Both the position numbers and the translations under genes were made by a program. Positions 1 through 43,225 of a stretch of 64,000 bases of DNA are shown piece by piece. The stretch spans positions 23,210,063 through 23,274,062 of the forward strand of contig NC_092565.1 of NCBI RefSeq assembly GCF_037975245.1, read 5' to 3'. This stretch comes from Apostichopus japonicus (Eukaryota). Below the pieces are notes generated by a model. That model was given only the letters and a program-made list of their open reading frames with translations, did not search any database and had not been told where the DNA came from. Each line of letters opens with the position of its first letter. Positions within the stretch are counted from its first letter, which is position 1.

Positions 1-1168
1 ATATAAAATATAACAGAATATAAATCCCTCATATAACAGGTGAAAATATTCTACTGAACCCGTTCCATACCAAGCAGTTTTGAGGCTGCGAAACAAAGGA
101 TCGACCAGAAATATAGAAATAGCATAGTCTGAAGCAGTATCTATACCCTGTGGCAGCTATGATGATTTTCACACACATGATTCAGTGCATGGTACATTCA
201 ATTGTTGGTCAGAATCGGGACATACATACAGTCAAATGTGGTGCAAACTGTAGATTTGCATTGTTTCACACAGATGATTTGAGGATGGATACTTTTGTGG
301 GGCTATGATAAATATCACAAACACAATTCAATAGTACACCTTTCTTTAAGATAGTATACAAATTATACATGGTTATGAGTGCAATAGTGCAAATATTTCA
401 TGAGTTAAAAGATGGAATGTTCCATTCAACGAGGCGCAGCTGAGTTGAATGGAACAAATTACATTTTTCAACGAATGTAATATATGTACTATTGCACAAA
501 TGGAAACCATTCATTATTTGTTTCATACAACACCTTCAAATTTGGATATAATTGGATGTAAAATGCACTCATGCAACAGATTTTTTTGAACAGACAGGTT
601 TCTATGCTCTCTTACCATTGAAAAAAAGTGCTATCAAAAAAGTATAGCACAAGGTTCTATTTCATAGAGTGCAATAGAGCGGATTTTGCATGCAATCGAT
701 GAGCAATTGACCAATCAAATGGCCGGAATATAATTAGGTGTTGTATAATATCTAAACACCTTCAGTCGTGGTAGCTGCATGTTAAAATTATTACACTTTT
801 ATGACAGTATTGGTCAGTCAAGACATTTAGGGCAGAGGTGCCATTCAGAAGCTGTGTATCCCACTTTGTCATCACAAGGTTCCTAGATCAAGCTACTGTC
901 AGACTATACAGTAGGTTAATCCTCTTCAGCCATTGATGAGCATATATGGCCTAATACGGGGGAAATGTTCCATCAGATAAGGAAGGCAATTGGTGGTCCC
1001 CTGAACCGAGTGGTGATTATATTGATAATACACTCCTGTATGGATGCCAATTGTGTGGAAATTCTTGATCATTTTAATAACACACCCCAATATAGACAGG
1101 TCCTAAATCTCTAAGCATTATATTTATTTCAATCAAGATCAATAATTTACTGATTGTACTTTTTGCAG

Positions 1169-1219
1169 ACAACTAATGAAGAGCATGATGAAGTACCTCA
1201 GGAGGAAATGAATACTATG
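1169..1219 (+). CDS. 51-nt cassette exon copy 1 (TTNEEHDEVPQEEMNTM), embedded in the tandem repeat unit
   Basis: tttttgcag|ACAACTAATGAAGAGCATGATGAAGTACCTCAGGAGGAAATGAATACTATG|gtatgtacc. Only one frame is open. The length is 51 nt (phase 0 at both ends), with a canonical polypyrimidine/AG acceptor and GTATGT donor. Confidence 0.45.
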
Positions 1220-2105
1220 GTATGTACCATAATATTTTGGTAAATTAATTTAAGACAATAATTATAGGTATGGGTATTAAACTATACAAGCTAGAATACA
1301 CAATAGATGTAATCTATATACCCTAAGAATATAAAATATAACAGAATATAAATCCCTCATATAACAGGTGAAAATATTCTACTGAACCCGTCCCATACCA
1401 AGCAGTTTTGAGGCTGCGAAACAAAGGATCGACCAGAAATATAGAAATAGCATAGTCTGAAGCAGTATCTATACGCTGTGTCAGCTATGATGATTTTCAC
1501 ACACATGATTCAGTGCATGGTGCATTCAATTGTTGGTCAGAATCGGGACATACATACAGTCAAATGTGGTGCAAACTGTAGATTTGCATTGTTTCACACA
1601 GATGATTTGAGGATGGATACTTTTGTGGGGCTATGATAAATTTCACAAACATGATTCAATAAGCCCTAGTACATCTTTTAATTAAATTGTATCTAAACAA
1701 CGTCAGTTGTGGTAGCTGCATGTTAACTATATTACGCTATCGTGTATTGGTCAGTCAAGACATTTAGGGCAGAGGTGCCATTCAGAAGCTGTGTATCCCA
1801 CTTTGTCATCACAAGGTTCCTAGATCAAGCTACTGTCAGACTATACAGTAGGTTAATCCTCTTCAGCCATTGATGAGCATATATGGCCTAATACGGGGGA
1901 AATGTTCCATCAGATAAGGAAGGCAATTGGTGGTCCCCGGAACCGAGTGGTAATAATATTGATAATACACTCCTGTATGGATGCCATTTGTGTGGACATT
2001 CTTGATCATTTTAATAACACACCCCAATATAGACAGGTCCTAAATCTCTAAGCATTATATTTATTTCAATCAAGATCAATAATTTACTGATTGTACTTTT
2101 TGCAG

Positions 2106-2156
2106 ACAACTAATGAAGAGCATGATGAAGTACCTCAGGAGGAAATGAATACTATG
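2106..2156 (+). CDS. 51-nt cassette exon copy 2
   Basis: Identical exon and splice context in the next repeat unit. Confidence 0.45.
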
Positions 2157-4033
2157 GTATGTACCATAATATTTTGGTAAATTAATTTAAGACAATAATT
2201 ATAGGTATGGGTATTAAACTATACAAGCTAGAATACACAATAGATGTAATCTATATACCCTAAGAATATAAAATATAACAGAATATGCATATTGAATCCC
2301 TCATATAACAGGTGAAAATATTCTACTGAACCCGTTCCATACCAAGCAGTTTTGAGGCTGCGAAACAAAGGATCGACCAGAAATATAGAAATAGCATAGT
2401 CTGAAGCAGTATCTATATGGGTCTGTTCACGTTAAAGCGCCCAAATTAGCATAAATGGCATTTGGAGCATTGTGACAAAATAATTAGAGATTCTAGAGAT
2501 ACAAATATTATCCCCATGGAGAGAGTCCACCTAGCTGTACCTACCATAGCATAGACAATTTCCTGAGATATGCATATAGGTATGCTATACTCCCAGAAGT
2601 GCCGAAATGTGGACGGAAAATGTTGCCGTTTTCAAACTGCACAATTTGTACTTTGATCTATTCTCAACTCCAAAAGAGGATTACTCCAAATTTTGTCATG
2701 ATTGAACTTTGTGGCTATAGGTTCCCTCTCATAAATATTTCAGAAAATTTCATCGATGAATTTGCGAATTATTGCGAAACTGGACCAGTGTTTCGGACAT
2801 CACTTTTTCCGTCCACATTTATACACCAATTTATGAGTGGCATAGTTTGGGGTTAAATAACAAATGTTGAAAGTGGTGTGCCTTTTCAATACTGTCATAG
2901 TTGTATCAAATAAAATATATATCAGATGCATGTCCATTCAGCCACATTTTACTACACAATGAAGTTAAACAACATGCAAAATGTTTCCGTCCACATTTTG
3001 GTGATGTCCGAAACGTCATGAAGCAACTAATATATGAAGTATGCTAAAACCCACAAGACTGTTTTGTTACTCTAATTAAAGCATAAGTACTCCCTCAACT
3101 ACAGTATGTACATGACACATTTCCACTCATCCGTTTTGATTTTATAACCATTTCAAATTTTCCGTCCATGTGTGTGATGTCCGAAACACCAGTGATGTCC
3201 GAAACAAGTTTTAATTAATATTGCTTTATGTTGCTTGAAAAAAAGACACAATAGATGAACACTTCATATATTATGACAAGTTCTATTGTTACAAACATAC
3301 ATACTGCACTACTCAAAACTTCATCCATCTTTACCAAATATTATAGCAAAATAACCTTAAAAGTATGTTTCGGACATCACCATGTGTTTCGGACATCACT
3401 TTTGTGAATCCAACATATTGTAAAACAGCACTAGTTTCAACTGAATGATTCAATTGGTTGATTTCAGTGTGCTAGAATACACTAAGATCCTACAACAGAA
3501 TGCTTCTTAACTTTTGGTGTCATTTGACCAACATGTATTCATCTTTTGATGACTTGTGACAAGTCTAAAATGATATTCTACATATTTGGGTATGAATGTT
3601 ACTGGGAACAACAAGTTACTTGGATTTTTCTAGAACTGACATCATTAACACTACAATTTTCCATCATTTAGTACTGAAGAAGTAAAAAAAACATTTAGTG
3701 AAATTTTTTCTGACATAACATGTATCAGGAACACCATCACAGTATACAGTACATTAGAAAGTAATGCTGTACAGTAATTGTCTGCTATAGCTTAAATCAA
3801 GCTATTTGTCACAACCATAGAAAGCCTTTTTATAGGCTAGAAGAACTACATCAAAGGGCACGTGGGTACCATGCATGGACTGTCATGTGATGTGTTTGAG
3901 CTTCCATGGCGGTACCAATTTGATATTTCCCAATATCATATTGATAATTGTAAAGTTAATTACACACAATTGGAATAGGCCTAGATGAGTTTTGTAGCAC
4001 AGTAGCTCATGTTTCTATCACATCGGTCTACAG

Positions 4034-4451
4034 CAGGGTTGTCCAACCTTTTGCAGAGGAGGGCCACATGGAATGATTATGATGAAGTAGGGGGCCGTAT
4101 GAACCCTTCGCTCGATTTTTTCGACTTTTTGCGCGAAGCCTAAGGCAACAAAATGTGAGCACTGCGCGTGGAGCGCACTAACTTATTTTCCTTCCTGATA
4201 AAACAGTCCAGCCGGCCCCCCTCCCCTCCCCTCCCCTCCGCTGAGAGAGTGTCATACAAACTGACCTGTATGAAGTTTTTTTTTTGGACCCAGAAGGTTC
4301 GAATGATTGATTATATAGCTTCAAATTGTTATCAATAAATCTGCTCACTAAATTTCACACCGTAGAGCCTCTCTGGCGGGCCGGACGCAACCCTGCGGCG
4401 GGCCGGACTGTGGCCAGCGGGCCGTAGGTTGGACAACCCTGGTCTACAGCA
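4034..4451. mobile_element. hAT-like MITE (418 bp) nested in the TIR element
   Basis: Perfect 15-bp TIR CAGGGTTGTCCAACC (4034-4048) and its reverse complement (4437-4451). Perfect 8-bp direct target-site duplication GTCTACAG at 4026-4033 and 4452-4459. An 8-bp TSD with a CAGGG terminus is the hAT signature. Confidence 0.75.
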
Positions 4452-5886
4452 TAGTATGTCAACGTCACTTTGAAAAACTGAACACCGTTCAGTGTCGTCT
4501 GTCGCTCTAATTGATATGGACTCAGTGTGCATCTATAACACCCTATGTCAGAGCAGTTTAACTGTTGATGGGAACTTGATGGTTGTCAAGAAAAGCTACC
4601 AGTATTTTGGGAAGATGTTAGCTAAGTAGTAGGACTGTGGAACGTGTCTGGTGATCTAACCTATAAATGTTGGTCAACGACTATAACTATAATGTTAAGG
4701 TACAGACATTGCTAGGTAACTGTGTGTTGTCTGCTGCTCTAAGCCCAGATATACATTTACTGTATTAGTTAGTAAATCACAATGGGCAATGTGAAGATTA
4801 ATGCAGTATATCAGATTATTAGTACCACCCTGGAACACATTACAGCACATGACCCTCTGACTGGTACACGGATTTACTGTGTGGTGAAACCTCCAGGTTT
4901 ACTCGATGGTGTCAACAGTAGTAATATACACAGAGTGGTGCATCATGCATGCATGACCATGTTTTCATTCCGAGTTCCTTCACTGAGACTTCAGATCTTT
5001 AGTGATATGTACAGTATACAGATATTTATCATGATGAAACTTAAGGATAAAGCTGAACAATTTGCTGAGCTGCTGTATACCATAACATCTAAGCCCTATA
5101 CTTAAATGTAAGTTTAGGCCATAAGCTTAAATAATAACAATCTTACAAAGTAAATCATTTAATTCATATGTGACAAGGAGTATTTGTACAAACCATGAAT
5201 ACTTGTTTTTCACATCATAATTGCCAAGGCATAATGATGAATCTCAATAAAGAAGGATATTTAAACTAGTACTTATAGTAGTTACTCGTATTGGCTACTA
5301 CTGTTGCTTAGCTGGGCCAGTGGAAGCAATCTTCAACATCGGCAGATCCAGCTCAAAGGTGCATGGGGAGGGGGTGGGAGCGGGTGGGTACCATTTGAAG
5401 GGGTGCAAAATAGTTATTGCTGACATTACAAAATAGGACCAAGCATTCTAATGGAGTTTAGGTTATGATACCTCCCTTCTGAAAATTGTTTAAATAGTAG
5501 ACTCAATGATACTAGCTACAACAGGTGGGTGCCAAATTAGCTATGTAGGGATGTCTCCTGTGTACATCTGTATATTTATTAAATGGTAAATATTTGCTGT
5601 TTGTTTCAATTATTGCAGACTTCATCTAGGTAATGATGGAAATGTGGAAACCGTAAAAGATAAAAAGAATTCTATAACCCTTTTGGGGAAAAATTTCTTT
5701 GCAGTCAATAATAATACCATTTTCTGCAAAATAATGTATAAGTTGATGTCTGGGAAGTGTTGGTGAACGCTTGCCAATGCAAATGGTATGCTGGACAGGT
5801 ACAGTAACGAATGTGGTGAAGCAGAGATTAACTTTATGCCAATGGTGATCAATGAATGGTCACTATGTGGAGTGTTATGGAGTGTT

Positions 5887-6081
5887 TGCGCAGTGGTTAA
5901 CGCAGTGGTTAACGGTGCCTTTCAATCATAAGGTCCCGAGTTTGTGTCACTCCAAGATTAATGTATGTCGTCCAGTTACAGAGTTGTTGACAATTGACAA
6001 TTCATAATCATGGTCGCTAAAAATGAATCTAAGAGACTGACTTCGATCAGCTTGCGGCTTTGCGGCTTTGCGGCTTTGATC
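5887..6081 (+). mobile_element. tRNA-derived SINE copy (5'-truncated). A 3' fragment at 6082-6150 lies between this copy and the next.
   Basis: Shares its body with the full copy at 21574-21761 (minus strand): ...cagtggttaacggtgcctttcaatcataaggtcccgagtttgtgtcactccaagattaatgtatgtcgtccagttacagag...gactgacttcgatcagcttgcggctttg, followed by a (cggctttg)n tail. Confidence 0.55.
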
Positions 6082-6150
6082 AGCCGCATTCATAATCATG
6101 GTCGCTAAAAATGAATCTAAGAGACTGACTTCGATCAGCTTTGCGGCTTT

Positions 6151-6325
6151 GCGCAGTGGTTAACGGTGCCTTTCAATCATAAGGTCCCGAGTTTGTGTCA
6201 CTCCAAGATTAATGTATGTCGTCCAGTTACAGAGTTGTTGACAATTGACAATTCATAATCATGGTCGCTAAAAATGAATCTAAGAGACTGACTTCGATCA
6301 GCTTGCGGCTTTGATAAGCCAATGA
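6151..6325 (+). mobile_element. tRNA-derived SINE copy (5'-truncated). Its 3' end and flank gataagccaatga are identical to those of the 21574 copy.
   Basis: Same family as the 5887 copy. Ends ...gcttgcggctttgataagccaatga. Confidence 0.55.
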
Positions 6326-8973
6326 TGGCTTTTTCGCGAGTTCCTGCTTGCAGGAAGATCTAAACTAAATGTGTGTATTCTGGATATGTATGAATTGAGT
6401 ATGTAGTAAACAGTGATAATTCATTAACATTAAATGGGGTTATCATTTACACCAAGCCTTCAGATTTTCACTTATCACCTATCTTTTCACCTATCGGCTC
6501 TGTCCAGATGTTCAATTTGAAATATGTGCCTCAGGGCATTTGTTTTCCCAAGAATTTACAGTGCCATTATTTTTCAGTACACCTTGTTGATTTCCCAATC
6601 TATGGTGTTTTAATAAACTGCATTCCCTCAAAAATTCATAATATCTAGTGTAAATCTGCTAAGTACTGTATTATCTGACTGTTGTGTCTATATTGAAGCA
6701 GACTTTTGTTGCTTGAACAGGTTTGAATAGCAAAAATATTACTTCATATTGTTGTTACCTGCTGAAATATGTATTATTGTTATGCAGCTTTGTGAACATT
6801 TTTCCAAGGTGATGTCCGAAACATTCAGTGATGTCCGAAACGCTCATAAAGTAACTTGTAATAAACACTGAGGATGTGAACTATAATAAGTTCAAAACTG
6901 TCATTATACCTTGTAGGTAGCTTGTCAACAACAAAGACCCCTTTGTTACAAATTTAACTTTTGATATGATATGCGTTGTGTAGAAAACATTACAGTGATG
7001 TCCTAATACAGTTGTGGTGATGTCCGAAACATAGTCCAAGACAGTCTTATGCAAATCTATAAAACAAGTGTTTGCATTTTTCATTATTTCAAATGAATTT
7101 GATGCTGTTTGTTATCATCACATATCGTGATGTACTGATATATATTGCTAAGTATTAACAAGCATGGCCTTCGTTTAATAATTGTCTTGTTGATCACTTG
7201 GATCACTTGTATCCCTTTTCTTTGTTTTGAACTTGGAACCTAGGAAGGGTCCATAGATCTCTTTTGGTACAGGTATCAACTTACTAAAATGCTTTTCTAT
7301 TCATTATTGCCATGAAATGAACATCATTTGGTTTATTACTAAATATTAGGTTTAATATATTAGGTAAACCATTGGTGGGTGATGTCCGAAACAAGATCAT
7401 TTTGGAGGGGTGATGTCTGAAACAAGAGTCAAGAAAAAAAAAATTCTGAGAGGACATGACCCAGAATTTTCAGCTTTTGGTTACTATATGTGCTTATGTT
7501 GTGGTTTAATTTTATGGTGTAATTGTTACTATTAATTTCAATTTTGTTCTTTAAAGAAAAACTTTTTTAACATTATTTCAGGAAAAATTGAATATTTTCT
7601 AACGATACTCGAATATTTTTTAAGAAACATCATCGATATCATTGAAAACTTGTCTTACAATAGCAAATTTTGTGTTAATAAAGAAAATAAAAACAGAATT
7701 CCCAAATGTAGCAGCAATGGAATGACACACCACCATTACAAAAAGAACAAATTTTGGAAAATTTATAGATTGTCACACTTACAACCATCTTGAATATAAT
7801 TTCCAGAATAGTTTAAGCTCTGTTCAATTCTGATTCATAAAGTGCAGATATTAGTTATGTTATTTACTTAGAATAGAAGTTCTTTACTGTAATTTGAAAA
7901 TTTGGTACCTCAGGCAACCAAATTGGGCGCTTTAACGTGAACAGACCCATATGCTGTGTCAGCTGTGATGATTTTCACACACATGATTCAGTGCATGGTA
8001 CATTCAATTGTTGGTCAGAATCGGGACATACATACAGTCAAATGTGGTGCAAACTGTAGATCTGCATTGTTTCACACAGATGATTTGAGGATGGATACTT
8101 TTGTGGGGCTATGATAAATATCACAAACACAATTCAATAGTACACCTTTCTTTAAGATAGTATACAAATTATAGATGGTTATGAGTGCAATAGTGCAAAT
8201 ATTTCATGAGTTAAAAGATGGAAAGTTCCATTCAACGAGGCGCAGCTGAGTTGAATGGAACAAATTACATTTTTCAACGAATGTAATATTTGTACTATTG
8301 CACAAATGGAAACCATTCATTATTTGTTTCATACAACACCTTCAAATTTGGATATAATTGGATGTAAAATGCACTCATGCAACAGATTTTTTTGAACAGA
8401 CAGGTTTCTATGCTCTCTTACCATTGAAAAAAGTGCTATCAAAAAAGTATAGCACATGGTTCTATTTCATAGAGTGCAATAGAGCGGATTTTGCATGCAA
8501 TCGACGAGCAATGGACCAATCAAATGGCCGGAATATAATTAGGTGTTGTATAATATCTAAACACCTTCAGTCGTGGTAGCTGTATGTTAACATTATTACA
8601 CTTTTATGACAGTATTGGTCAGTCAAGACATTTAGGGCAGAGGTGCCATTCAGAAGCTGTGTATCCCACTTTGTCATCACAAGGTTCCTAGATCAAGCTA
8701 CTGTCAGACTATACAGTAGGTTAATCCTCTTCAGCTATTGATTAGCATATATGGCCTAATACGGGGGAAATGTTCCATCAGATAAGGAAGGCAATTGGTG
8801 GTCCCCTGAACCGAGTGGTGATTATATTGATAATACACTCCTGTATGGATGCCAATTGTGTGGAAATTCTTGATCATTTTAATAACACACCCCAATATAG
8901 ACAGGTCCTAAATCTCTAAGCATTATATTTATTTCAATCAAGATCAATAATTTACTGATTGTACTTTTTGCAG

Positions 8974-9024
8974 ACAACTAATGAAGAGCATGATGAAGTA
9001 CCTCAGGAGGAAATGAATACTATG
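8974..9024 (+). CDS. 51-nt cassette exon copy 3
   Basis: Identical exon and splice context. Confidence 0.45.
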
Positions 9025-10300
9025 GTATGTACCATAATATTTTGGTAAATTAATTTAAGACAATAATTATAGGTATGGGTATTAAACTATACAAGCTAGA
9101 ATACACAATAGATGTAATCTATATACCCTAAGAATATAAAATATAACAGAATATAAATCCCTCATATAACAGGTGAAAATATTCTACTGAACCCGTCCCA
9201 TACCAAGCAGTTTTGAGGCTGCGAAACAAAGGATCGACCAGAAATATAGAAATAGCATAGTCTGAAGCAGTATCTATACGCTGTGTCAGCTATGATGATT
9301 TTCACACACATGATTCAGTGCATGGTACATTCAATTGTTGGTCAGAATCGGGACATACATACAGTCAAATGTGGTGCAAACTGTAGATCTGCATTGTTTC
9401 ACACAGATGATTTGAGGATGGATACTTTTGTGGGGCTATGATAAATATCACAAACACAATTCAATAGTACACCTTTCTTTAAGATAGTATACAAATTATA
9501 GATGGTTATGAGTGCAATAGTGCAAATATTTCATGAGTTAAAAGATGGAAAGTTCCATTCAACGAGGCGCAGCTGAGTTGAATGGAACAAATTACATTTT
9601 TCAACGAATGTAATATTTGTACTATTGCACAAATGGAAACCATTCATTATTTGTTTCATACAACACCTTCAAATTTGGATATAATTGGATGTAAAATGCA
9701 CTCATGCAACAGATTTTTTTGAACAGACAGGTTTCTATGCTCTCTTACCATTGAAAAAAGTGCTATCAAAAAAGTATAGCACATGGTTCTATTTCATAGA
9801 GTGCAATAGAGCGGATTTTGCATGCAATCGACGAGCAATGGACCAATCAAATGGCCGGAATATAATTAGGTGTTGTATAATATCTAAACACCTTCAGTCG
9901 TGGTAGCTGTATGTTAACATTATTACACTTTTATGACAGTATTGGTCAGTCAAGACATTTAGGGCAGAGGTGCCATTCAGAAGCTGTGTATCCCACTTTG
10001 TCATCACAAGGTTCCTAGATCAAGCTACTGTCAGACTATACAGTAGGTTAATCCTCTTCAGCCATTGATGAGCATATATGGCCTAATACGGGGGAAATGT
10101 TCCATCAGATAAGGAAGGCAATTGGTGGTCCCCGGAACCGAGTGGTAATAATATTGATAATACACTCCTGTATGGATGCCAATTGTGTGGACATTCTTGA
10201 TCATTTTAATAACACACCCCAATATAGACAGGTCCTAAATCTCTAAGCATTATATTTATTTCAATCAAGATCAATAATTCACTGATTGTACTTTTTGCAG

Positions 10301-10351
10301 ACAACTAATGAAGAGCATGATGAAGTACCTCAGGAGGAAATGAATACTATG
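10301..10351 (+). CDS. 51-nt cassette exon copy 4
   Basis: Identical exon and splice context. Confidence 0.45.
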
Positions 10352-11627
10352 GTATGTACCATAATATTTTGGTAAATTAATTTAAGACAATAATTATAGG
10401 TATGGGTATTAAACTATACAAGCTAGAATACACAATAGATGTAATCTATATACCCTAAGAATATAAAATATAACAGAATATAAATCCCTCATATAACAGG
10501 TGAAAATATTCTACTGAACCCGTCCCATACCAAGCAGTTTTGAGGCTGCGAAACAAAGGATCGACCAGAAATATAGAAATAGCATAGTCTGAAGCAGTAT
10601 CTATACGCTGTGTCAGCTATGATGATTTTCACACACATGATTCAGTGCATGGTACATTCAATTGTTGGTCAGAATCGGGACATACATACAGTCAAATGTG
10701 GTGCAAACTGTAGATTTGCATTGTTTCACACAGATGATTTGAGGATGGATACTTTTGTGGGGCTATGGTAAATTTCACAAACATGATTCAATAGTACACC
10801 TTTCTTTAAGATAGTATACAAATTATAGATGGTTATGAGTGCAATAGTGCAAATATTTCATGAGTTAAAAGATGGAAAGTTCCATTCAACGAGGCGCAGC
10901 TGAGTTGAATGGAACAAATTACATTTTTCAACGAATGTAATATTTGTACTATTGCACAAATGGAAACCATTCATTATTTGTTTCATACAACACCTTCAAA
11001 TTTGGATATAATTGGATGTAAAATGCACTCATGCAACAGATTTTTTTGAACAGACAGGTTTCTATGCTCTCTTACCATTGAAAAAAGTGCTATCAAAAAA
11101 GTATAGCACATGGTTCTATTTCATAGAGTGCAATAGAGCGGATTTTGCATGCAATCGACGAGCAATGGACCAATCAAATGGCCGGAATATAATTAGGTGT
11201 TGTATAATATCTAAACACCTTCAGTCGTGGTAGCTGTATGTTAACATTATTACACTTTTATGACAGTATTGGTCAGTCAAGACATTTAGGGCAGAGGTGC
11301 CATTCAGAAGCTGTGTATCCCACTTTGTCATCACAAGGTTCCTAGATCAAGCTACTGTCAGACTATACAGTAGGTTAATCCTCTTCAGCCATTGATGAGC
11401 ATATATGGCCTAATACGGGGGAAATGTTCCATCAGATAAGGAAGGCAATTGGTGGTCCCCGGAACCGAGTGGTAATAATATTGATAATACACTCCTGTAT
11501 GGATGCCAATTGTGTGGACATTCTTGATCATTTTAATAACACACCCCAATATAGACAGGTCCTAAATCTCTAAGCATTATATTTATTTCAATCAAGATCA
11601 ATAATTCACTGATTGTACTTTTTGCAG

Positions 11628-11678
11628 ACAACTAATGAAGAGCATGATGAAGTACCTCAGGAGGAAATGAATACTATG
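11628..11678 (+). CDS. 51-nt cassette exon copy 5
   Basis: Identical exon and splice context. Confidence 0.45.
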
Positions 11679-12564: not shown

Positions 12565-12615
12565 ACAACTAATGAAGAGCATGTTGAAGTGCCTCAGGAG
12601 GAAATGAATACTATG
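12565..12615 (+). CDS. 51-nt cassette exon copy 6 (variant HVEVP: GAT>GTT, GTA>GTG)
   Basis: Same context. Point variants keep the frame open. Confidence 0.4.
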
Positions 12616-14364: not shown

Positions 14365-14415
14365 ACAACTAATGAAGAGCATGATGAAGTGCCTCAGGAG
14401 GAAATGAATACTATG
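14365..14415 (+). CDS. 51-nt cassette exon copy 8 (silent GTA>GTG)
   Basis: Same context. Confidence 0.4.
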
Positions 14416-15710: not shown

Positions 15711-15747
15711 GAAACTGCATGCAAATCAACATCAGTCTCATTCACAG
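15711..15747 (+). CDS. Small exon (ETACKSTSVSFT+G)
   Basis: cttgttttag|GAAACTGC...TTCACAG|gtgagt. Phase chaining with the next exons leaves a single continuous open frame. Confidence 0.4.
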
Positions 15748-15871: not shown

Positions 15872-15931
15872 AATCCCCAAATGGTGCATTATATTTTGAT
15901 GCTGATCTGAGAAAATACCATCATTCACTTG
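15872..15931 (+). CDS. 60-nt exon (ESPNGALYFDADLRKYHHSL)
   Basis: cactctttcag|AATCCCC...CACTTG|gtaagtg. Only the +2 frame is open, which fits a phase-1 join from 15747. Confidence 0.45.
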
Positions 15932-16146: not shown

Positions 16147-16206
16147 ATAACAACCCCAATGAGCCTGTGTTTTTGGATGAAATGACAGGGAATATGTACT
16201 CATATG
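16147..16206 (+). CDS. 60-nt exon (DNNPNEPVFLDEMTGNMYSY), paralogous in length and periodicity to 15872-15931
   Basis: ccacag|ATAACAACC...CATATG|gtgagtt. Only one frame is open. Confidence 0.45.
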
Positions 16207-16421: not shown

Positions 16422-16447
16422 ATATTTGTACTGTATCCTGCCAAGAG
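16422..16447 (+). CDS. 26-nt exon (DICTVSCQE) that restores phase 0
   Basis: catttcaacag|ATATTTG...CAAGAG|gtaaag. Confidence 0.35.
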
Positions 16448-17603: not shown

Positions 17604-17660
17604 GAGTATCCTGAACTTCAACCAGTATTTGATAAAATGATGCAGCAAATAGAAGAACAG
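17604..17660 (+). CDS. 57-nt exon (EYPELQPVFDKMMQQIEEQ)
   Basis: tttgatttacag|GAGTATCC...GAACAG|gtaaac. Phase 0. Confidence 0.45.
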
Positions 17661-18114
17661 GTAAACAGTCTTGCATAAATTATAGGCCTATCTCAGTGAA
17701 TGTTTCCCAGCTGTCTTGATGATGCATATCTACAAGTATTAATTATCAGGGGTACTGTTAATTAGCTAAAGACTAGACTTTTAAGTCGCCAAAATGAAAA
17801 GATCTAGTCGCCATGGCCACCAGAATATACTGTATGTGAAAGGTGTGATCAGATTATCTGTGTGAAACTAGAATCTGCAGTTTGCTCCACACATGATAGT
17901 GTCTATGGGTACCATTGGCTTACAATTGCAACTGATCAATGTACCAATGAATCACTTGGCACTCCAGTAATGTTGGAAGGTGAAAGCCAAAGACCAAGAA
18001 TTGGCAGCTAACTAACAATGTCAGGCAATATGTATTGCAGCTGGAGAGTTATATATTGTATATCAACAATGAATTTATATGGTTTATTGATTCACATTAT
18101 TCTACTTCTTGCAG

Positions 18115-18165
18115 ACATCTGATGATGATAGTGACAAAGCTATCTACGAAGAAAATGATTCCAAG
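18115..18165 (+). CDS. 51-nt acidic exon copy 1 (TSDDDSDKAIYEENDSK)
   Basis: cttcttgcag|ACATCTGATGATGATAGTGAC...GATTCCAAG|gtatgtac. Same length and phase as the upstream TTNEEHDEV cassette. Confidence 0.5.
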
Positions 18166-18387
18166 GTATGTACAGTACTACCCTTGCAGTTACAGTAATT
18201 ATTTCAAACCACACTTTTTCAAAAAACAATTGAGTCTCCTATTCCAGTTACAATGCAGATAAATAAATGGAATGGAAATATCACTTGAACAATATGTATT
18301 GCAGCTGTCACCTGGAGAGTTATATATTGTATATCAACAATGAATTTATATATGGTTTATTGATTCACTTTATTCTACTTCTTGCAG

Positions 18388-18438
18388 ACATCTGATGATG
18401 ATAATGACAAAGCTATCTACGAAGAAAATGATTCCAAG
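18388..18438 (+). CDS. 51-nt acidic exon copy 2 (TSDDDNDKAIYEENDSK)
   Basis: Tandem duplicate with the same splice context. Confidence 0.5.
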
Positions 18439-18655
18439 GTATGTACAGTACTACCCTTGCAATTAATTATTTCAAACCACACTTTTTCAAAAAACAATTG
18501 AGTCTCCTATTCCAGTTACAATGCAGATAAATAAATGGAATGGAAATATCACTTGAACAATATGTATTGCAGCTGTCACCTGGAGAGTTATATATTGTAT
18601 ATCAACAATGAATTTATATATGGTTTATTGATTCACTTTATTTTACTTCTTGCAG

Positions 18656-18706
18656 ACATCTGATGATGATAATGACAAAGCTATCTATGAAGAAAATGAT
18701 TCCAAG
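18656..18706 (+). CDS. 51-nt acidic exon copy 3
   Basis: Tandem duplicate with the same splice context. Confidence 0.5.
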
Positions 18707-19477
18707 GTATGTACAGTACTACCCTTGCAGTTAATTATTTCAAACCACACTTTTTCAAAAAAACAATTGAGTCTCCTATTCCAGTTACAATGCAGATAAA
18801 TAAATGGAATGGAAATATCACTTGAACAATATGTATTGCAGCTGTCACCTAGAGAGATTCAAAAACTTACTGGTTTGGATATTTACGAGTGACGAGCTTA
18901 CCTGTCTCCTCACAACCTTAGCACCTCATTCTACCGTGCCTATAAAGTCCTGGTAAAATAATAACACTGTGCGCCCTCTATGACCGAACCCCCCCTCGGT
19001 CACTCCTCACTACTCATGAGACCACTCCTTAAAAGTGGCCTCACGGTCACCGAAATAGGGGTGGCCAGAATCCTCTGGCCACCCCCAAGGACTCCCGTCG
19101 ACTAAACTTCTCAAAGGTGAGCCCTTAACAAAAGGCACTGATGCCTTCCTAGCAGGGAGAGTGTAATCCTCCCCGCCGCAGCGGGTAAGGGGGGGGGGGA
19201 CACTCTCCTGAGCCCTGCAGGCGAAACTACCCCTTTTTCCTAACAAGGAGCCTCATCCTGTAAAGGCCCAACACTTGCTAACCCTAAGACAACTTAGGTG
19301 AGTACGCCTATGAAAAACACAGGGTGCAAAGTTACCCTCACCGATAGACCTGGCCGGTGACTCTTAGTAGTTGTTGGCTCTGTCTATCTGGTGTTGTGCT
19401 TGGAGTCGTGAGCCTAGTCGAACGACTGCTCCCCCGTCCGGCTGTGTCCCACCCCCTCGGGGGAGGGAGGCGGGAAT

Positions 19478-19575
19478 GGAGACAGGTAAGCTCGTCACTC
19501 GTAAATATCCAAACCAGTAAGTTTTGGAATATTTACTTCGCTCCTCGCTTACCTGTCTCCTCACAACCTTAGCAC
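19478..19575. repeat. Internal complementary region (ICR) of the DIRS-like element
   Basis: ggagacaggtaagctcgtcactcgtaaatatccaaaccagtaagtttt is the reverse complement of 18868-18909. ggaatatttacttcgctcctcgcttacctgtctcctcacaaccttagcac is the reverse complement of 25081-25130. Confidence 0.6.
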
Positions 19576-21573
19576 CGAGTGGCACTGCCCGATGGTGGGA
19601 GGCCCGAGGGGTGGGACCAAGTACCAACCGGCTACCACCGCGCTACCAAAAGCTGCCTCGGCGTGTAGAGTGTCAGGTAAGTAACAGGCGACGAACGTAG
19701 TTGGTGTTTTCCACGCTGCCACCTTGAGGATGTCCTGTATCGGGATACCGGCAGAGAGAGCTGTGGAAGCCGAGGCCCCACTGATGTTGTGATCTCTTGG
19801 CCGGGTATCCCCCCATCGTGAACGGGCGGATCATCTCTACTAGCCATCGGGATAGGGTATCCTTGGCGGCTGCTGTTTAAGGTGGTCGTGGCAGGATGAA
19901 AAGGGAGGTTGTTTGTCTCAACTTCTCTGTCCTGTTTAAGTACCACTTCAGTGCCCTGACTGGGCACCATCGCTTGTCCTCAGCCACTGATGAAAGGGTT
20001 TTGATTTCCGGAAAGAAAATGTCCCCGGGCAAGAAAGTCAAGGCCCGGTTCTTGGCAATAAGGGACGGGTCTGGAACTGTCCTCGCCCCATGGCCCTCGA
20101 ATCTGATGTGGTTCTGTTTGGTTGTTAGGGCTTGGAGGTAACTCCTTCACGCTGACGCTACCGCAATGACGAAGAGTGTTTTCTTTGTAAGAGCAGCCAG
20201 GGAAACGTTCCCCGACGATTCGTACAGCGGCCCTGCCAGGGCATGCAGCACTGCTGAGAGCCCCGCAGAGGGGGCTAACTGTCTGACTCGTGGACGGCGA
20301 TGAGCCATGCCTTTGGTGAGCTGGTCAATGTCTGGGTTAATGCCCAGCGTGGAGCCGTCTGGAAAACCAGACGTCCCCGTCTGGGGCCTGTGTGTGGGAC
20401 CTGCGGCCTGGGACCCGGGGTCCGGAGGGAGCCACTAGGATGAGTTTACCCTTGGAGCTGCGAATCTTCCTCAGTATCTGGCTGATCATGCCAAAGGGGG
20501 GGGGGGAAGAATTTAAACCTCTGGTCCGTCTCAAGGCAGGGACCTGGCGCTATGTGGGAGGCTGCAGGTGGGACCGCCTGTTACAAAAGATGGGCAGCCC
20601 ATTGTTGCCCTTTGTCGTAAGCAGGTCTATCAGAGGTATGCCGAACATGTGGAAAAACCTACCGCATGTTCCTTGCGAAGGGTTTACTCGTCGGGGTCGA
20701 GTTGTCCCCTGGGCAGAGCATCGGCCCTCACACTCTCCTTTCTGGCTATATGGGAGACCCATAGGGCCGTGCCAGATTCTGCAGCTGTGGTGACGGTCTC
20801 CCATGCCAGACGGCACAATCTCTCTGCCCTGGAGTCCTGAGAGCGAGGCGGAAGTACATGAAACCTGGTTATCTTTGCAAATAGAGTGTTGGGGCCGATC
20901 CTTTGCCCTGCTGACGCCACTGTGGTGCAGGAAAGTGGTTTCTCTGTATATGCTGCTAAAGAAGTCAAGGACAGTGGCCTGTATGATAACCTTGTTAGCG
21001 CCTGCAGTACAGCAGCACTCGCAGTACTGCTTGCATTACCACAGTACCGCTGATGACCCCTTTAGTTATCAACCAGTTGCAATCAGAAAACCTCTGAAGA
21101 AAAGTAATGCCTTGATGATGTAGACCTAAGCTGTACCCTGTAGGGAGGTTTAATGGAGGTTCTTTCCATGAAAAATAATATTAATAATAATATTGAGGGT
21201 TGAACTGCGCCGGCCTATCTATCGATAACGAAGCCAGAGGCGCTAGCAATATTACCCTGGTCAACAATAACCTGTTAAACAGAGAGAAATCCCTCCTGGA
21301 TGGAAAGACGCAATGGAGATAAAGTGCCTTGCCCAAGGAAACAACAGAATGATCTGGCCAGGACTAAAACCTGCAAGCCTTAGATCACCAGTACACTGCC
21401 TACACCGCTTGACCACAGTGCTCTCCAAAAATTGAGTACTGAATGGATAGTTTGCTTCATCAGAGTCTTAATCAATGCTACAGCTGCTATGTGGCTTTTA
21501 CAACTACAGTATATGTATGTATTTGTGTATGTAATTTAGATCATCCTGCAAGTAGGAACTTGTGAAGAAGCCT

Positions 21574-21761
21574 CATTGGCTTATCAAAGCCGCAAGCTGA
21601 CCAAAGTCAGTCTCGTACATTCATATTTTAATGTCCATGACTATGAATTGTCAACAGCTCTGTAACTGGACAACATACATTAATCTTGGGGTGACTTGAA
21701 CCGGGGACCTTTTGATTGGAAGGCACCGGGTTTAACCACTGAGCTAACTAAGCTACAGCCC
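21574..21761 (-). mobile_element. Full-length tRNA-derived SINE (minus strand), nested in the DIRS-like element
   Basis: Minus-strand 5' head gggctgtagcttagttagctcagtggttaaacccggtgccttccaatcaaaaggtccccggttcaagtcacc carries A-box-like (TAGCTCAGTGG) and B-box-like (GGTTCAAGTC) sequences. Its 3' end cannot pair with its 5' end as an acceptor stem, so it is not a functional tRNA. Its body and tail match the 5887 and 6151 copies. Confidence 0.6.
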
Positions 21762-22052
21762 TACTCACCAGGAACAAACTCCCAACAGGGGATGTGTAGG
21801 GTGGGTTTGTAGAAATTCCACCTCATAAATCCTGGCTGTTTAACGGAGTCCAGGGAGTGACTCAGCAAACACAAAGGCGTTACTAAATGTTTAGTCTTTT
21901 GCTATGATAGCGTTATTAGAGGTGTAAGAAATATGTTACCGAAACCCTTTAGGGGCTATTATTTCAAAACAATTTCCGTTAAGACATTAATATAACATTA
22001 ATATAACGTAATATCTCATAGACATCTTATGTCAACGTTTTATCAACACCAC

Positions 22053-24290
22053 ATTTAACGTAATAAACACGTATTGAATGTTATGATAACGTACCCGTTA
22101 CTTCTCAAATCTCTTCCTGTCGAGATGTGTCCATTTCGTAGTGCAGTAAAGGTATCCAGCTTCCTATTGAAACCACCTAGCGCCTAGGCTAGTCAAGACT
22201 AGGCCATCAGGTGCTACGAAATGCAACTCTGCTTAAGATGTCGGAACATCGAACATTGTTCATAAAGCGCATGCTGTATGTTCGGAGCGTGTTAGCGCTT
22301 GTAACTTGCTGGGGTTGTATCCTACCCCTTTTTCAACTTACTAACGCGTTTGTCTTGGTAATTCACCAAAGAAATAGGAAGAAAGGCTTATTCCATAGGA
22401 TCGCTCACGTAGTCGATAGCTCGTTGCAGTAAAAGTTGAGCTTACACGTGTCAAGCCAGGTGGCTGCTTGGCCCCCCCCTCCTCTCTTAACAAATGTGCC
22501 ACGTTGTACCTTTTTTTCTGGCAGTTTGCCAAGGATCTATGAGCGTTATGTTTCCTGGCACTTTGCCAAGTCTCGAGAAAGTTCTCTTCCTAGCAGTTTG
22601 CCAAGGTTTTAAAGTAAACGGAATACTGTAAGTCATGAGAACCGATTTAAAACCCCTCAGTCTTACGCATTTTAACATGTTCTGGAAGTGGGTTCACCAG
22701 TGTTTTAAACGACAGTGTTTTTAAACACAAGTAAGATTTTAACCTAGGCAAATGGCGATGAATTATGATTAGAGAGGAGTATAATTAGCGAGGAGAATAT
22801 GACCCATGAGTGTCTGCAGGTACTCGATAAATAAACACACATTTGGGATGTGTAGTGGTAGCGGTGTTTTTCCGCAAATGATTCGAACCTGTCGTCGCCG
22901 CTCAAGCTGCTAGTTCCGGGAGGGGGACACTCCCCCTATTCTGGGAAGCGGGAGTAACCGTCCTCTGTAACCCCGAAATCTAGGGGTCGACCTCGTCGTC
23001 TAGGCCGGACAGGTTGCCCGACGCTCTGCAAACCAGGTCGTCCTTGCCGGGGAACAAATCAGGTTCCATTCTTTGGTCTGGGATTGATCGTGGTGTCGCG
23101 GCCGGGCTGGCCGTGGGTTGCGATCGCTCCTCGGCACCGATGTCTGTGTTCGGTGTCTGGGGATAAGTATTTCTCCCTTTGCCGTGGGAACCTGGCTCGG
23201 GGCTGGTTCTCTTTTCGGATTGGGCGCTTGCCCCTGCTACCCCGTTCTGGGGGCCCGGCATTGGTAATCTCGTCGGTTCCCGGCCTCAGGACCGGCCGCG
23301 GCTCCGGTTAGGGGGTCTGCGGGCCGGGCTTCTGCACCTGCTACCCCATTCTGGGGGCCTAGCAGTTGTTAATCTCGTTGTAAATGTTGTTGTAGTTGTA
23401 AATGTTATTGTAAATGTCGCAGTTGTAAATGTTGTTACTCTCGTAGGCTCCCGACTTCGGGACCAGTTTTGGATCCCGTTTGGAGATCTGCGGACCGGGC
23501 TTCTGCCCCTGCGCCCCCGTTCTCGTCGGGCCCGGGCCCTCCGGAGCCAATCTCTGAGGACCCAGCAGTCGATTGTATAGCTCTGGTTCCCGGCTCCGGG
23601 GGCGGTCTCGGATCTGGAGTGAAAACTCGGTTCTGCCTTCCCTTCGAGTCTCGCCGGACCCGGGGTCTCGCCGGACCCGGGGCCTCGCCGGACCCAGGCT
23701 CCCGGAGCCCGTCTCTGTGTGCGTACCACGCCGGGTACCACCACGCCGGTATTCCTCGACCCGGACATTCTGTCCTTTCCGGTGGGATTTTTTTTTTTTT
23801 TTTTTTTTCTCGCCGGACCCGGGCTCCCCGGAGCCTGCTATGGGACCGGCTCCGTTTCAGCGACCCCTCGGTCGTACTCTCTCTCTCGGACCCGAGCTCT
23901 CCGTGGCCTGTAGCCCGCGCTCCATGGGTCTCTCTTGCTGCGACCCGGACTGAGACGTTGCCTCTAGCCCGGCCGAGCCGTGCCTCTTCTCAAGAGGTCT
24001 TTTCTTGGCAGGAGCCTTGCTCCTGCCCTTCCCTCTGGCCGTAATCAACCGGACGTCGCCGGGACCGTTAGGGGTACTCTTTCTCTCTCTCTCCACCTCT
24101 CCTTCGGCCCTCTCCTGGCCACTTTCCTCCACCTCTCTCACCACTTCTCCCTCCTCCTCTCTCTCTCTCTCTTGTCTCTCCTATATCTTTTTCTGGGGCA
24201 CCGATGGCCTAAGGAATCAAGTCCAGCCTGCCCTAAAGCTTGCTTCTTAGACTCGTAAGCCACTGGTCTATCTAGTGCCACTGGGCTGGC
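22053..24290. repeat. Unclassified dispersed repeat X, copy 1 (inside the DIRS-like element)
   Basis: Collinear with 33805-35300: acatttaacgtaa..tgaatgttatgataacgtacccgttac..; the tandem motif tggcagtttgccaagg; the tract gctagttccggg...ccgtgggaacct.gctcgggc..ggtt; and a CT-rich 3' tract. Internal (GCCGGACCCGGGG)n repeats, a T21 run at 23783-23803 and an A11 run at 24395-24408. Confidence 0.6.
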
Positions 24291-25186
24291 GAAAAATTTA
24301 TGCAGACCAGGCATGGGTCCCGTCTGGTGTAGGTTCTACACTTAGGACACAAATCGTGTTCGACCCAGGTTCTGCCTGGCCGAAACATCGAAAGTTAAAA
24401 AAAAAAACTTCAGCTGGTTACGAGACAAACTAAAACGCCCGAATTAAGGAAAGACTAACTCTTAAGCTTACGGAAAAATGCAAACTAGCAAGAGAACGGG
24501 AGAGAACGGGAGGTACATAACGGTGAGTAGAGGTACGTAGCGTAACCTAGCAACGGCAAAATACGAAAAACGCTATGAAGTGGCCTAACAAAATCAACAC
24601 AAGCTGAAAAAGAACATGAGAGAGCGAAATATAGAAGAAGAAATCGTGAATAGAAATACAATGTAGACATGCTATGAACATGAAAATACAACGACACGCC
24701 TATAGCGTGGGGAAGGGAAATTGGCGGGAAACCTAGGCAGTTCGCGGAACTGCTACCCCCGCAAAAAACCTAAGGGCGGAAACGCACTAGGAATAAAAAC
24801 AGTCCCCAAAACCCTCCCTTTCAACAAAAAAGGATACTTATCGGGCTGGAAAGGACTGCAATACTCCTAAGAATCCGAGGAAAGAAACTTCCAAAGATCG
24901 CTAAAGAAAACCAAGACGAAATCCAAGGGAAATATATCCACAAGAAATTCACGTGAAGACACTTTTAATGGTAGAATGAGTAGTGAGGAGTGACCGAGGG
25001 GGGGGGAGGGGTTCGGTCATAGAGGGCGCACAGTGTTATTATTTTACCAGGACTTTATAGGCACGGTAGAATGAGGTGCTAAGGTTGTGAGGAGACAGGT
25101 AAGCGAGGAGCGAAGTAAATTTCTATATTGTATATCAACAATGAATTTATATGGTTTATTGATTCACTTTATTCTACTTCTTGCAG

Positions 25187-25237
25187 ACATCTGATGATGA
25201 TAATGACAAAGCTATCTATGAAGAAAATGATTCCAAG
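25187..25237 (+). CDS. 51-nt acidic exon copy 4, lying to the right of the DIRS-like insertion
   Basis: Identical to copy 3. The unit is separated from the array by the 6.3-kb insertion. Confidence 0.5.
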
Positions 25238-25918
25238 GTATGTACAGTACTACCCTTGCAGTTAATTATTTCAAATCACACTTTTTCAAAAAACAATTGA
25301 GTCTCCTAATATTCCAGTTACAATGCAGATAAATGAATGGAATGGAAATATCACTTGAACTTAATAAGAACCATGATGGCATTAAATTTCATGCATGAGA
25401 AGAGTTAAGGCAATCTGAGTGAATCTCATAGTATATACCAGAACATATATATAGAGAGGCAACATTTCATCAATATGAAGAATTTCTTTCTCACCAATAA
25501 ATGGAGACCTATTAAAGTAGAATCATGAAGCAAACAAACATACCCTTAACTACCTTTAAGTATTAGGCATTAGTGTTGTATTACTGTAGTTCCACTAAAA
25601 TTAGATCAAAATAATAGTCCTTATATTCTTCATAGAAACAACATAAGGAAGCGGTACATATATCCTCCAATCTAAATTATCTGTATGAAATGATGGAAGT
25701 CTGCAGTTGCACCACAACTGACAGTGAGTATGGGTACCACTGACCTACAACTGTATGTTAGTACAATGCATGCATGTGTGTCGCTCAAAAGTATGCATAA
25801 AAAATCGTGTGTGGAAGTAGTGTTACATATAGGATTTAAAAAAATAGTTGATGAGATTTTCATGTCATGGTCTGTCAATTAAACCCAACTTCTGTTTGTA
25901 TAGGAACAAAGCACACTA

Positions 25919-26481
25919 GTGTCAGTGGCGTAACTCTCATGCTCTCGGGGGGGGGGGGGGGAGGCAAACCTCCAGGCACCCGGGCTAAGGGGCACCCAGG
26001 CCTGGATACCCTTTCAACACGATAATACTTTGTTTGCATGGCTATAATGGCTTAGGAAGAGAAGTAGAAACCTTTACCCACTTTACGCTTTTCACCCTAT
26101 AAATATCAAAACCTTGAAAAAAATCCAGAATTTATAAGCATTATGATATGGTCAGGCCACAATCAGGGCCTATCAGTAGACTAGCAGCGAGTGACGAATC
26201 TTTGAAAGTACAGAAATTGGAAAAGATGAATACATTACTTTTAAGGCTAACTATTTTTACAACTTAACATGATTAGTTCATTAAAACATGAATTAAAATT
26301 GATCTAAAGTTCACAATCATTTGTAAGTTACAATCATTTGTAAGTTACAATCATTTTTAAGTGGCTATATGGCTTTCAAAACCAAAATTAATTTACTGTG
26401 CTGCACCATGCACACCATAGGTCAGAGGCGTCCCAATCCGTCGCTTTTGCACTGGGCACCCCAAACCAACGTTACGCCACT
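25919..26481. mobile_element. Candidate MITE with a 12-bp TIR CAGTGGCGTAAC
   Basis: cagtggcgtaac at 25922-25933 and gttacgccactg at 26470-26481. TGT flanks both ends. CAGTGGCG-type termini plus G-runs recur at 27323 and 44263. Confidence 0.3.
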
Positions 26482-27503
26482 GTGTAGTGGTTAGTAACCA
26501 GCATTTATTCCATTTTAGCACAAAACATACACAAGATTAACCAAATATCATATTTACTCTAATTGCATAGATTTAGCATACAGTCTCCTACTATATGACA
26601 GTCTGTATACAATATTTATGTGAGTGCGCAACTTAATTTAGTGAGGTGCAAATTGACCAATCAGCATTTGCGACACCCACAATAGGATTTCACTCCACAA
26701 AAATCTACACATGAATTAACAAATTGACAAATTAATAGCATTTCTCCATAGCGTTAGATTGTAGTTCAATCAAATAAGTTTTTTGCGGGCTGCAATTAAT
26801 TCACACAAAAAGTTTGTGTTTTCAGAATTAAATTTGATTAGAAAATCTTTGAAACAGTGGCCCCATCAGAGCAAACATGTCCCAACGATTGGTACCTTGA
26901 CACCTGTTTTTACTACAAAGCAAAAACAACAACACACGGAGTGTTTACGTTCAGTCACAGTTGTTAAACAATAACAGGAATTCATGTTCTTGGTAACGAC
27001 ATATGACATGGCAGTTTGTCGCAATCAGGGATGTTCTTGGCCCCTAACTATAGTCACTTTACATGTACCTGATTTGCAAATCAATATTAACATAGTCCTA
27101 ATACATGCACATGGTTTTGTGTTTGTCTTAGCCCAGTGGCACTTCTATTAGATTGAATATGGCATTTGCCACTTTTAAAAAAACATGCATAAAGTTACTG
27201 ATGGACATTTTTTTCAAAGCTAACAAAATAACTAGATTATTGCACTACAGTTGGTATTCTAAGACTGTCATGCCAAAAAGTAAGATATTATATACCGATT
27301 CCCTAGAAACTCTATGGAAAGCAGTGGCGGATCCAGGATTTCTGAAACGAGGGGCCCTCTTAATTTTCGCAAGGGGGTGGGGGGACCCGCTGGTCCTGCC
27401 CTTGGAAAGTTATGCATAGCTTGCCATTTGAGATGCATTATACAGTACATGTAGTTCAAGGAAATTCTGTATTTGTATTAAATTTTCATGTCTTTTTACA
27501 TTA

Positions 27504-27551
27504 GATTCCAAAAAGGCTAAGGAAACTTAGACAATTAAGAAGCTACTCTAA
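27504..27551 (+). CDS. Candidate terminal exon of the acidic-repeat gene (IPKRLRKLRQLRKLL, stop TAA at 27549-27551)
   Basis: Strong polypyrimidine tract and AG (tttcatgtctttttacattag|) at 27483-27503. A phase-0 join from the 51-nt exons gives a short basic tail and then a stop. All three frames hit stops before 27538. Confidence 0.35.
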
Positions 27552-43215: not shown

Positions 43216-43225
43216 CACAATGAAA

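Follow-up and report, generated by a model that had tools for sequence, protein, structure and literature searches.

A SET-recombinase gene of Apostichopus japonicus with an exon-per-repeat linker, probably carried by a large Crypton-like DNA element

The first 29,742 nucleotides of a 64,000-nucleotide stretch of contig NC_092565.1 (hereafter the window) from the Japanese sea cucumber Apostichopus japonicus are predicted to cover the central and 3' portions of a single protein-coding gene; from the N-terminus, its product would comprise a SET domain resembling that of KMT5A, a disordered linker of acidic character, two zinc fingers and a tyrosine recombinase. Much of the linker appears to be encoded by two arrays of tandem genomic repeats, A and B, every unit of which carries a single 51-nt exon, and this exon-per-repeat model is supported by the agreement of the sequence with RefSeq gene models. 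We consider it likely that the gene, with its exon-amplified linker, belongs to a large Crypton-like DNA element with introns and serves its transposition. The window as a whole is eukaryotic, with about 35% GC, and protein matches identify A. japonicus as the source species.

Two arrays of 51-nt exons and the gene model

Array A lies on the forward strand at positions 1 to 15241 and comprises at least nine tandem units, each with one 51-nt exon of phase 0-0; the count is a minimum because the window opens inside an additional long unit. The initial annotation had described eight such segments with an acceptor, a donor and one frame, and all eight are present (1169-1219, 2106-2156, 8974-9024, 10301-10351, 11628-11678, 12565-12615, 13430-13480 and 14365-14415, forward strand). 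They encode the peptide TTNEEHDEVPQEEMNTM, of which the sixth exon gives a D>V variant (HV) and the seventh an H>Q variant (QD), and frame 0 is the sole open frame. Upstream of each exon there is a pyrimidine tract ending in ctttttgcag, and the downstream border reads gtatgtac (GTATGTAC). The HD form of the peptide is encoded by five of the eight exons, and four exons are identical at the nucleotide level; short reads therefore cannot tell which of the identical exons are used or how many. The long units measure 1327 bp and the short ones 937, 865, 935 and about 877 bp, pairwise identity between units ranges from 82 to 99.6%, and a long unit equals a short one plus an extra segment of about 386 bp. 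This 386-bp difference was examined as a miniature inverted-repeat transposable element (MITE), and it showed neither terminal inverted repeats nor a target duplication. One unit is split, cleanly in its intronic part, by a nested non-autonomous DNA transposon of 5.5 kb (2415-7952) that has 33-nt terminal inverted repeats and subterminal GTTTCGGACATCAC repeats.

Array B (18041-25389, forward strand) is made of 268-273-bp units, again with 51-nt exons of phase 0-0, located at 18115-18165, 18388-18438, 18656-18706 and 25187-25237. These exons have A-like borders and encode the peptide TSDDD[S/N]DKAIYEENDSK. All four had been recognized in the initial annotation; the first three lie in the tandem repeat itself, and the fourth is set apart by an insertion of 6.26 kb, a nested, GC-rich, non-autonomous DNA element (18857-25120) that is bounded by terminal inverted repeats of 100 nt, contains GC-rich repeats of 17 bp and interrupts the fourth unit in its intronic part.

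The two arrays had been regarded as independent repeat families that happened to share an exon length. However, an in-register comparison of exons A and B gives 30 matches in 51 positions, their splice-site flanks and intron ends are shared, and they are considered homologous because of this agreement. Of the 63,949 51-mers that the window contains, none but the A and B exons themselves reaches 30 or more matches to exon A; agreement at this level goes well past chance. The introns have otherwise diverged, and exon B has two open frames. A and B are accordingly diverged copies of a single cassette, in which length, frame and splice sites have been kept.

Between the arrays there are five single-copy linker exons on the forward strand, at 15711-15747 (37 nt), 15872-15931 (60 nt), 16147-16206 (60 nt), 16422-16447 (26 nt) and 17604-17660 (57 nt), which chain in one phase, as had been proposed, and encode ETACKSTSVSFTESPNGALYFDADLRKYHHSLDNNPNEPVFLDEMTGNMYSYDICTVSCQEEYPELQPVFDKMMQQIEEQ. 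Array B is followed by the terminal exon (27505-29742, forward strand) of 2,238 nt, consisting of 745 codons and a stop, which is entered in phase 0 after the acceptor ttacattag. The open frame from 27505 matches RefSeq proteins of A. japonicus at 100% identity. When five of the A exons are joined to the five linker exons, and these in turn to the four B exons and the terminal exon, the translation equals the RefSeq protein P0019 (XP_071828557/XP_071845094, 1,128 aa) residue for residue, the comparison spanning from the first TTNEE to the stop. All 18 exons in the window have AG/GT borders. The first 150 or so residues of P0019 form the SET domain, the exons of which are absent from the window and must therefore lie upstream of it.

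Each cassette is symmetric and, where included, would contribute 17 residues whose net charge is about -5 or -6. All of them have 51 nt and the same splice sites, and therefore any number can be included or skipped in frame. In keeping with the cassette length, RefSeq isoforms of 1128, 1111 and 1094 aa differ in 17-residue steps that correspond to four, three or two B cassettes. The splicing given here rests on such RefSeq models and on comparative evidence.

In the initial annotation the locus was a stand-alone gene for a low-complexity protein of acidic 17-residue repeats, built from two independent repeat families and ending near 27551. The repeats and the linker exons are indeed present as described, and the arrays are acidic. 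However, the frame from 27505 continues past 27551, for a total of 745 codons up to 29742, and specifies a folded module that is conserved; in addition, the exons for the SET domain are situated upstream of the window, and the A and B exons are homologues of each other, so that the arrays are the linker of a SET/zinc-finger/recombinase protein of at least 1,128 aa. The long open frame and the exact match to P0019 refute a stand-alone gene, to which we give practically no chance.

Domains of the predicted product

The SET domain of P0019 is recognized by Pfam with an E-value of 1.6e-17, and its closest match is KMT5A/SETD8 (PDB E = 2.5e-25, residues 22-143). This was the only domain found by Pfam in the full 1,128-aa product, Pfam gave no match for the product of the terminal exon, and a sequence search of the PDB likewise returned the SET domain as the sole match. 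The order of domains named at the outset is predicted from these matches and from the features of the terminal exon described below.

The product of the terminal exon starts with an acidic disordered stretch. Two zinc fingers are formed by C83/C86/H96/H101 and C166/C169/H181/C185, residues that are invariant or nearly so in 48 relatives. An AlphaFold model based on the 48 homologues has a mean pLDDT of 81.9, with disordered residues at 1-55 and 632-672. The top fold match of this model in the PDB (Foldseek) is XerH (E = 7e-5, probability 1.0), and further fold matches are lambda integrase, topoisomerase IB and XerD. According to the model, the terminal exon encodes a two-domain tyrosine-recombinase module. 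R429/R431, K480, R555, H581 and Y590 are kept in 43-47 of the 48 relatives, which are 28-37% identical; by their motifs we take these residues to be the catalytic ones, and position 552 to be that of the histidine in the HxxR box.

The family was reached with the terminal exon as the query, word-indexed searches with the repeats or the linker being unreliable and missing even a cluster of 100% identity. At E <= 0.001 the number of 50%-identity clusters matched by the recombinase module is 7,940, and at E <= 1e-30 it is 1,688. Among the 48 relatives, two match Pfam Phage_integrase and 15 also bear a SET domain, and the SET-recombinase architecture appears, from these protein sequences, to extend well beyond A. 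japonicus. The N-terminal extensions of the recombinase relatives vary (SET, chromo, BRCT), and some models hold several copies of the module.

Recurrent exon arrays after the SET domain

A paralogue of the gene (61% protein identity) is present at locus L001 of an older A. japonicus assembly. In this locus the SET exons are followed by a single exon for TTSKDNEVHVTEKNK, a 484-bp tandem repeat, the same linker exons and the terminal exon; the TTSKDNEVHVTEKNK exon, as given by the RefSeq protein, is clearly related to exon A. The 484-bp unit is present in 5.7 copies, each with a 45-nt exon (TICEANDEIVTENSK) bordered by cag| and |gtaggt. The position of the array is the same as in the window, directly after the SET domain, and a B array is absent from L001. 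RefSeq isoforms of the paralogue step by 15 aa, from 717 to 807. Alignment of the window with L001 at the DNA level is confined to a linker exon (16147-16206, 82% identity) and the terminal exon, and the introns are unalignable. Between the two terminal exons, pS is 0.71 (saturated) and pN is 0.23, giving a dN/dS of about 0.12. A telomere-like (TAACCC)n tract lies at 2250-2297 of L001, about 550 bp upstream of the first coding exon of the paralogue, and a similar short tract is seen in the 3' region of the window (33778-33806).

Another such array was found in the fish Gambusia affinis (locus L002), where a 382-bp repeat of 11.7 copies, also directly after the SET domain, contains a 72-nt exon of phase 0-0 (VSAHPDKTVGEEPMGSLSSSLEPQ). 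At the protein level, homologues from sea bass, Astyanax and the zebra mussel (Dreissena) have unrelated tandem peptide repeats of 29, 43 and 41 residues, respectively, which directly follow the conserved PWRKK end of the SET domain; the sea bass models carry isoform labels up to X37. Exon-per-repeat arrays after the SET domain appear to be a recurrent feature of the family, because unrelated arrays occupy the same position in the window gene, the paralogue and Gambusia.

One could also suppose that the A and B exons are artefacts of gene prediction, and that the arrays are intronic satellites with splice-like signals that are skipped in the mRNA. The cassette splicing is, after all, read from sequence and gene models, chance open frames of 17 codons are not rare, and two of the six cassettes of L001 have frameshifts (in the old assembly). 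Furthermore, exon and flanks are equally conserved within the array: only three of the 51 columns of exon A are variable, but 41% of the equal-sized windows of the unit alignment vary equally little or less, and conservation of the exon within the array is not significant. The suggestion that the frame-keeping variants hint at selection is not supported for this reason. Against such an artefact, however, the same layout with unrelated units occurs in the paralogue and in fish, with exons that are always divisible by three, of phase 0-0 and flanked by strong splice sites; A and B keep their 51-nt length and frame despite diverged introns; peptide repeats occur at exactly the same position in homologues of four further species; and the RefSeq isoforms step by exactly one cassette. 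We therefore regard an artefact as quite improbable and retain the reading of the cassettes as coding exons.

The arrays probably originated when a short exon of phase 0-0 after the SET domain was amplified, together with its intron, as a tandem repeat (array A), a diverged copy of the same 51-nt cassette being amplified again downstream (array B). Units would then be gained and lost by unequal recombination between units, and cassettes may be skipped in frame, the outcome being an acidic, disordered spacer of variable length between the SET domain and the DNA-binding and recombinase modules. As a guess, recurrence might be favoured by the conserved phase-0 intron after PWRKK combined with a disordered linker that tolerates duplication, and the linker might tune the spacing between the SET and recombinase modules or offer a histone-like acidic surface between them.

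Tandem exon duplication with one exon per repeat is known from the PEVK exons of titin, the 54-bp exons of the fibrillar collagens and the repeat exons of TCOF1/treacle. The sea-cucumber arrays resemble these in having tandem units of a short symmetric exon and an intron, in the disordered, charged repeat product, and in a repeat number that depends on the copy number of units and on in-frame exon skipping. However, they are very young, with units up to 99.6% identical, and are located in an apparent transposon gene; and in SET-recombinase genes such arrays arose repeatedly, at the same position, from unrelated sequences and in distant species. The arrays thus represent a very young example of a protein repeat region growing one exon at a time.

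Genomic copies, the proposed element terminus and probable mobility

At least four contigs have annotated proteins with 99% or more identity to P0019 and with the cassette order HD, HD, HV, QD, HD. For the paralogue, four genomic copies (L001, L003, L004 and L005), each on a different scaffold, were compared. Across 10 to 11.8 kb, a stretch that takes in the introns and about 5 kb past the stop codon, their identity is 99%, and their arrays differ in size (5.7, about 4.9, at least 9.4 and at least 10.8 units). Since copy number already differs among genomic copies of 99% identity, the relation between genomic units and repeats in the mRNA is directly measurable. An apparent 5' truncation of L003 was discarded, as it coincides with N in the scaffold (9887). 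In L001, L003 and L004 the homology stops at ...GGCTAGTAAGAAC, beyond which there is an AC/ACAT/AT microsatellite, (ACAY)n, and then unrelated sequence.

A dispersed repeat, X, is intact at L003 1-539. In L001 it is found as two halves (389-852 and 20294-20354) that are 19.4 kb apart, with the break inside the (ACAY)n tract of X, and the 19.4-kb stretch between them holds the whole SET-recombinase gene. Terminal inverted repeats were sought in this 19.4-kb insertion and none were found. The corresponding terminus in the window is at 44819, GGCATGTAAGAAC, and is followed on the forward strand by a junction and flank (44820-44908) consisting of (ACAY)n (44820-44859) and the right-hand part of X, namely GCCAACCTGACTGCATA, the hairpin GGTTCCTTTTGCTAAAGCAAGGAACC and AAAAAG. 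The last 115 bp or so before this terminus (about 44703-44819) align with the 3' terminus of the paralogue at a score of 58; none of 2,000 shuffles scored above 30, and none of the other 247 tiles taken from the 3' region of the window above 21. The rest of the non-coding DNA of the window fails to align with the paralogue.

The right end of X lies beside the ACAY microsatellite, with the same end point, in the window (44860-44908), L001 (20307-20354) and L003 (491-539), and forms a perfect hairpin with 11-bp arms (GGTTCCTT..AAGGAACC). X is a candidate SINE-like element or recombination target. The hairpin was also considered as the recombination site of the element itself; it is also found at L003 453-539, where there is no element, and two of the four 3' junctions lack it, which makes it more likely to be part of a separate repeat, X.

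In the reading preferred here, terminal repeats are lacking from the element, which ends in ...GTAAGAAC and would reside in (ACAY)n microsatellites. If it behaves like other Cryptons, site-specific recombination of its end with a similar short target would be the way it moves, and a circular intermediate of the Crypton type would show the 3'-to-5' junction …GTAAGAAC-(ACAY)n-TGCATACC…. The copy in the window would reach from upstream of position 1 to 44819, including the two nested transposons and a 7.7-kb satellite. Its putative 3' non-coding part spans 29743-44819 on the forward strand, and no further long ORFs (open reading frames) were found in the element part of the window except within nested elements. 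The satellite (35507-43216) has a period of 204 bp and a higher-order period of 409 bp, with 37.7 copies, 88% matches and about 48% GC; it lies between the stop codon and the presumed terminus and is apparently carried inside the element.

Cryptons are DNA transposons whose only transposition enzyme is a tyrosine recombinase (Kojima and Jurka 2011, PMC3212892; Goodwin 2003 as cited in the Crypton literature), and those of animals lack terminal repeats (PMC3212892). The active CryptonF-1_cRei ends in CACCG and targets CAYCG, and a model of microhomology between donor and target has been confirmed for it (PMC9977147). The element described here would fit the Cryptons in that a tyrosine recombinase is the sole transposition enzyme, no terminal repeats are seen, and the short target appears similar to the end. 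It seems to share with them the recombinase fold with largely kept catalytic residues, the lack of a reverse transcriptase, the presence in multiple copies, and an insertion flanked by a short sequence that is also found at the target, here ACAY repeats. Judging from the paralogous copies, it is probably mobile in the Crypton manner. In contrast to Cryptons, however, a SET domain, an exon-array linker and two zinc fingers are fused with the recombinase in one polypeptide, there are at least 18 exons, and the length of the element is 19 kb for the paralogue and above 45 kb for the present locus, upstream part included.

The possibility had been raised that the exon is merely a conserved piece of a transposon consensus. 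The gene does appear to lie in a multi-copy and apparently mobile element, but the cassettes would be genuine coding exons of that element.

Alternatively, the genes could form a host family, domesticated or segmentally duplicated and no longer mobile, with arrays that are ordinary tandem exon duplications. The many introns, a gene length of at least 30 kb, nested transposons in the introns, strong purifying selection between the paralogues, replacement of the first catalytic His by Thr, and the RefSeq annotation as ordinary multi-isoform genes are all consistent with this, and the authors who described Glomhopper link a heavy intron load to a possible loss of autonomy (PMC13465315). However, a host family does not readily account for copies on different scaffolds that are 99% identical over more than 11 kb, with introns and 5 kb of 3' flank, and that share an end point at a microsatellite, nor for repeat X being split at one locus and intact at another. 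The terminal 115 bp are conserved between subfamilies whose non-coding DNA is otherwise unalignable, there are thousands of diverged relatives, and the catalytic R, K, R, H and Y are kept throughout the family, in contrast to domesticated DUF3504 genes, from which most of these residues are gone (PMC3212892). A host family that has lost its mobility thus seems unlikely to us.

Several observations nevertheless weigh against an active Crypton-like element with a functional exon array, in addition to the insignificant conservation of the exon noted above. KMT5A/SETD8 is an H4K20 monomethyltransferase. Its GRLINHSK aligns with GRLVNDDK of P0019, so that NHS is replaced by NDD with a His-to-Asp change, in what we take to be the cofactor-pocket motif NH(S/C) of SET domains; NDD is also found in the paralogue and in the sea bass and Gambusia homologues. 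The motif ELxYDYG of KMT5A is retained in P0019, including the Tyr of YDYG, which is presumably catalytic. P0019 further differs from KMT5A in lacking its N-terminal region and in the fusion with a recombinase, and its SET domain may be unconventional as a methyltransferase. In the recombinase, Thr552 stands in place of the His of the HxxR box. Because of Thr552 and the ND motif of the SET domain, neither enzymatic activity can be assumed. In addition, DUF3504, DUF3435 and Phage_integrase had no match at E <= 1 when the 1,128-aa protein was compared with Pfam.

As to the arrays, repeat number had been expected to follow from genomic copy number. There is one cassette per unit, but all RefSeq models hold five A cassettes, as against the eight in the window and at least one upstream, and two to four B cassettes. 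The five-A models could be due to real exon skipping, to collapse of identical exons in short-read evidence, or to an assembly difference. RefSeq models are computational, and ambiguous alignment of short reads can create isoforms that differ in the number of identical exons.

As to mobility, the intact X does not represent an empty allele, being a paralogous copy of 87% identity, and the 5' end of the element, which lies outside the window, is seen in one copy only. The X halves could instead be the termini of the element, in which case L003 1-539 would have arisen from it by internal deletion. Two of the four 3' junctions are without the right-hand part of X, which counts both against the insertion as read here and against X halves as termini. 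The older assembly may also be misjoined at microsatellites.

SETMAR (Metnase) of primates, a domesticated single-copy gene, joins a SET domain to a mariner transposase, and its SET domain is among the PDB matches of P0019 (3bo5). Both proteins have a SET domain N-terminal to a DNA recombinase of the transposon type. However, SETMAR combines a SUV39-type SET domain with a DDE transposase, whereas here a KMT5A-like SET domain is joined to a tyrosine recombinase in many diverged copies, and the SET-recombinase architecture looks like a design of the element itself.

The tandem-exon architecture is already known, and the gene itself is in RefSeq as an 'uncharacterized protein'. In the Crypton literature and in full-text searches we found no description of a SET domain combined with a tyrosine recombinase or Crypton, nor of a KMT5A-like domain in a transposable element. 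Pfam did not place the protein in a described Crypton lineage such as CryptonA/DUF3504, Repbase and Dfam being outside the scope of this comparison. Within the same scope, a Crypton-like element with a KMT5A-like SET fusion, recurrent exon arrays and microsatellite-associated insertion seems to be new. We propose only tentatively that it belongs to an undescribed Crypton-like lineage, widespread in marine animals and fishes, that is characterized by the KMT5A-like SET fusion, ACAY-microsatellite targeting and repeatedly independent exon arrays. It is conceivable, though we lean against it, that the repeats of 17 and 15 aa in the sea cucumber, 24 in Gambusia, and 29, 43 and 41 in sea bass, Astyanax and zebra mussel all belong to this lineage; selection on linker length, or duplication promoted by the recombination activity of the element, would be a possible but rather doubtful cause of the recurrence. 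If active, the element would be a Crypton-like transposon that targets microsatellites and brings its own chromatin-modifier-like domain, and it would explain many models of the 'uncharacterized protein, isoform X30' type in echinoderm and fish annotations. Such loci inflate isoform counts and are better handled as repeat-borne genes.

Scans of the window for tRNA genes and Rfam families gave no matches. An exon for an NK-class homeodomain (45615-46277, reverse strand; Pfam Homeodomain E = 2e-20), read as NK3/bagpipe-like, lies about 0.8 kb past the presumed 3' end of the element. Farther downstream, at 56453-57062, an (AT)61 microsatellite is followed by a dispersed repeat of about 490 bp that is 77% identical to L003 24367-24808.

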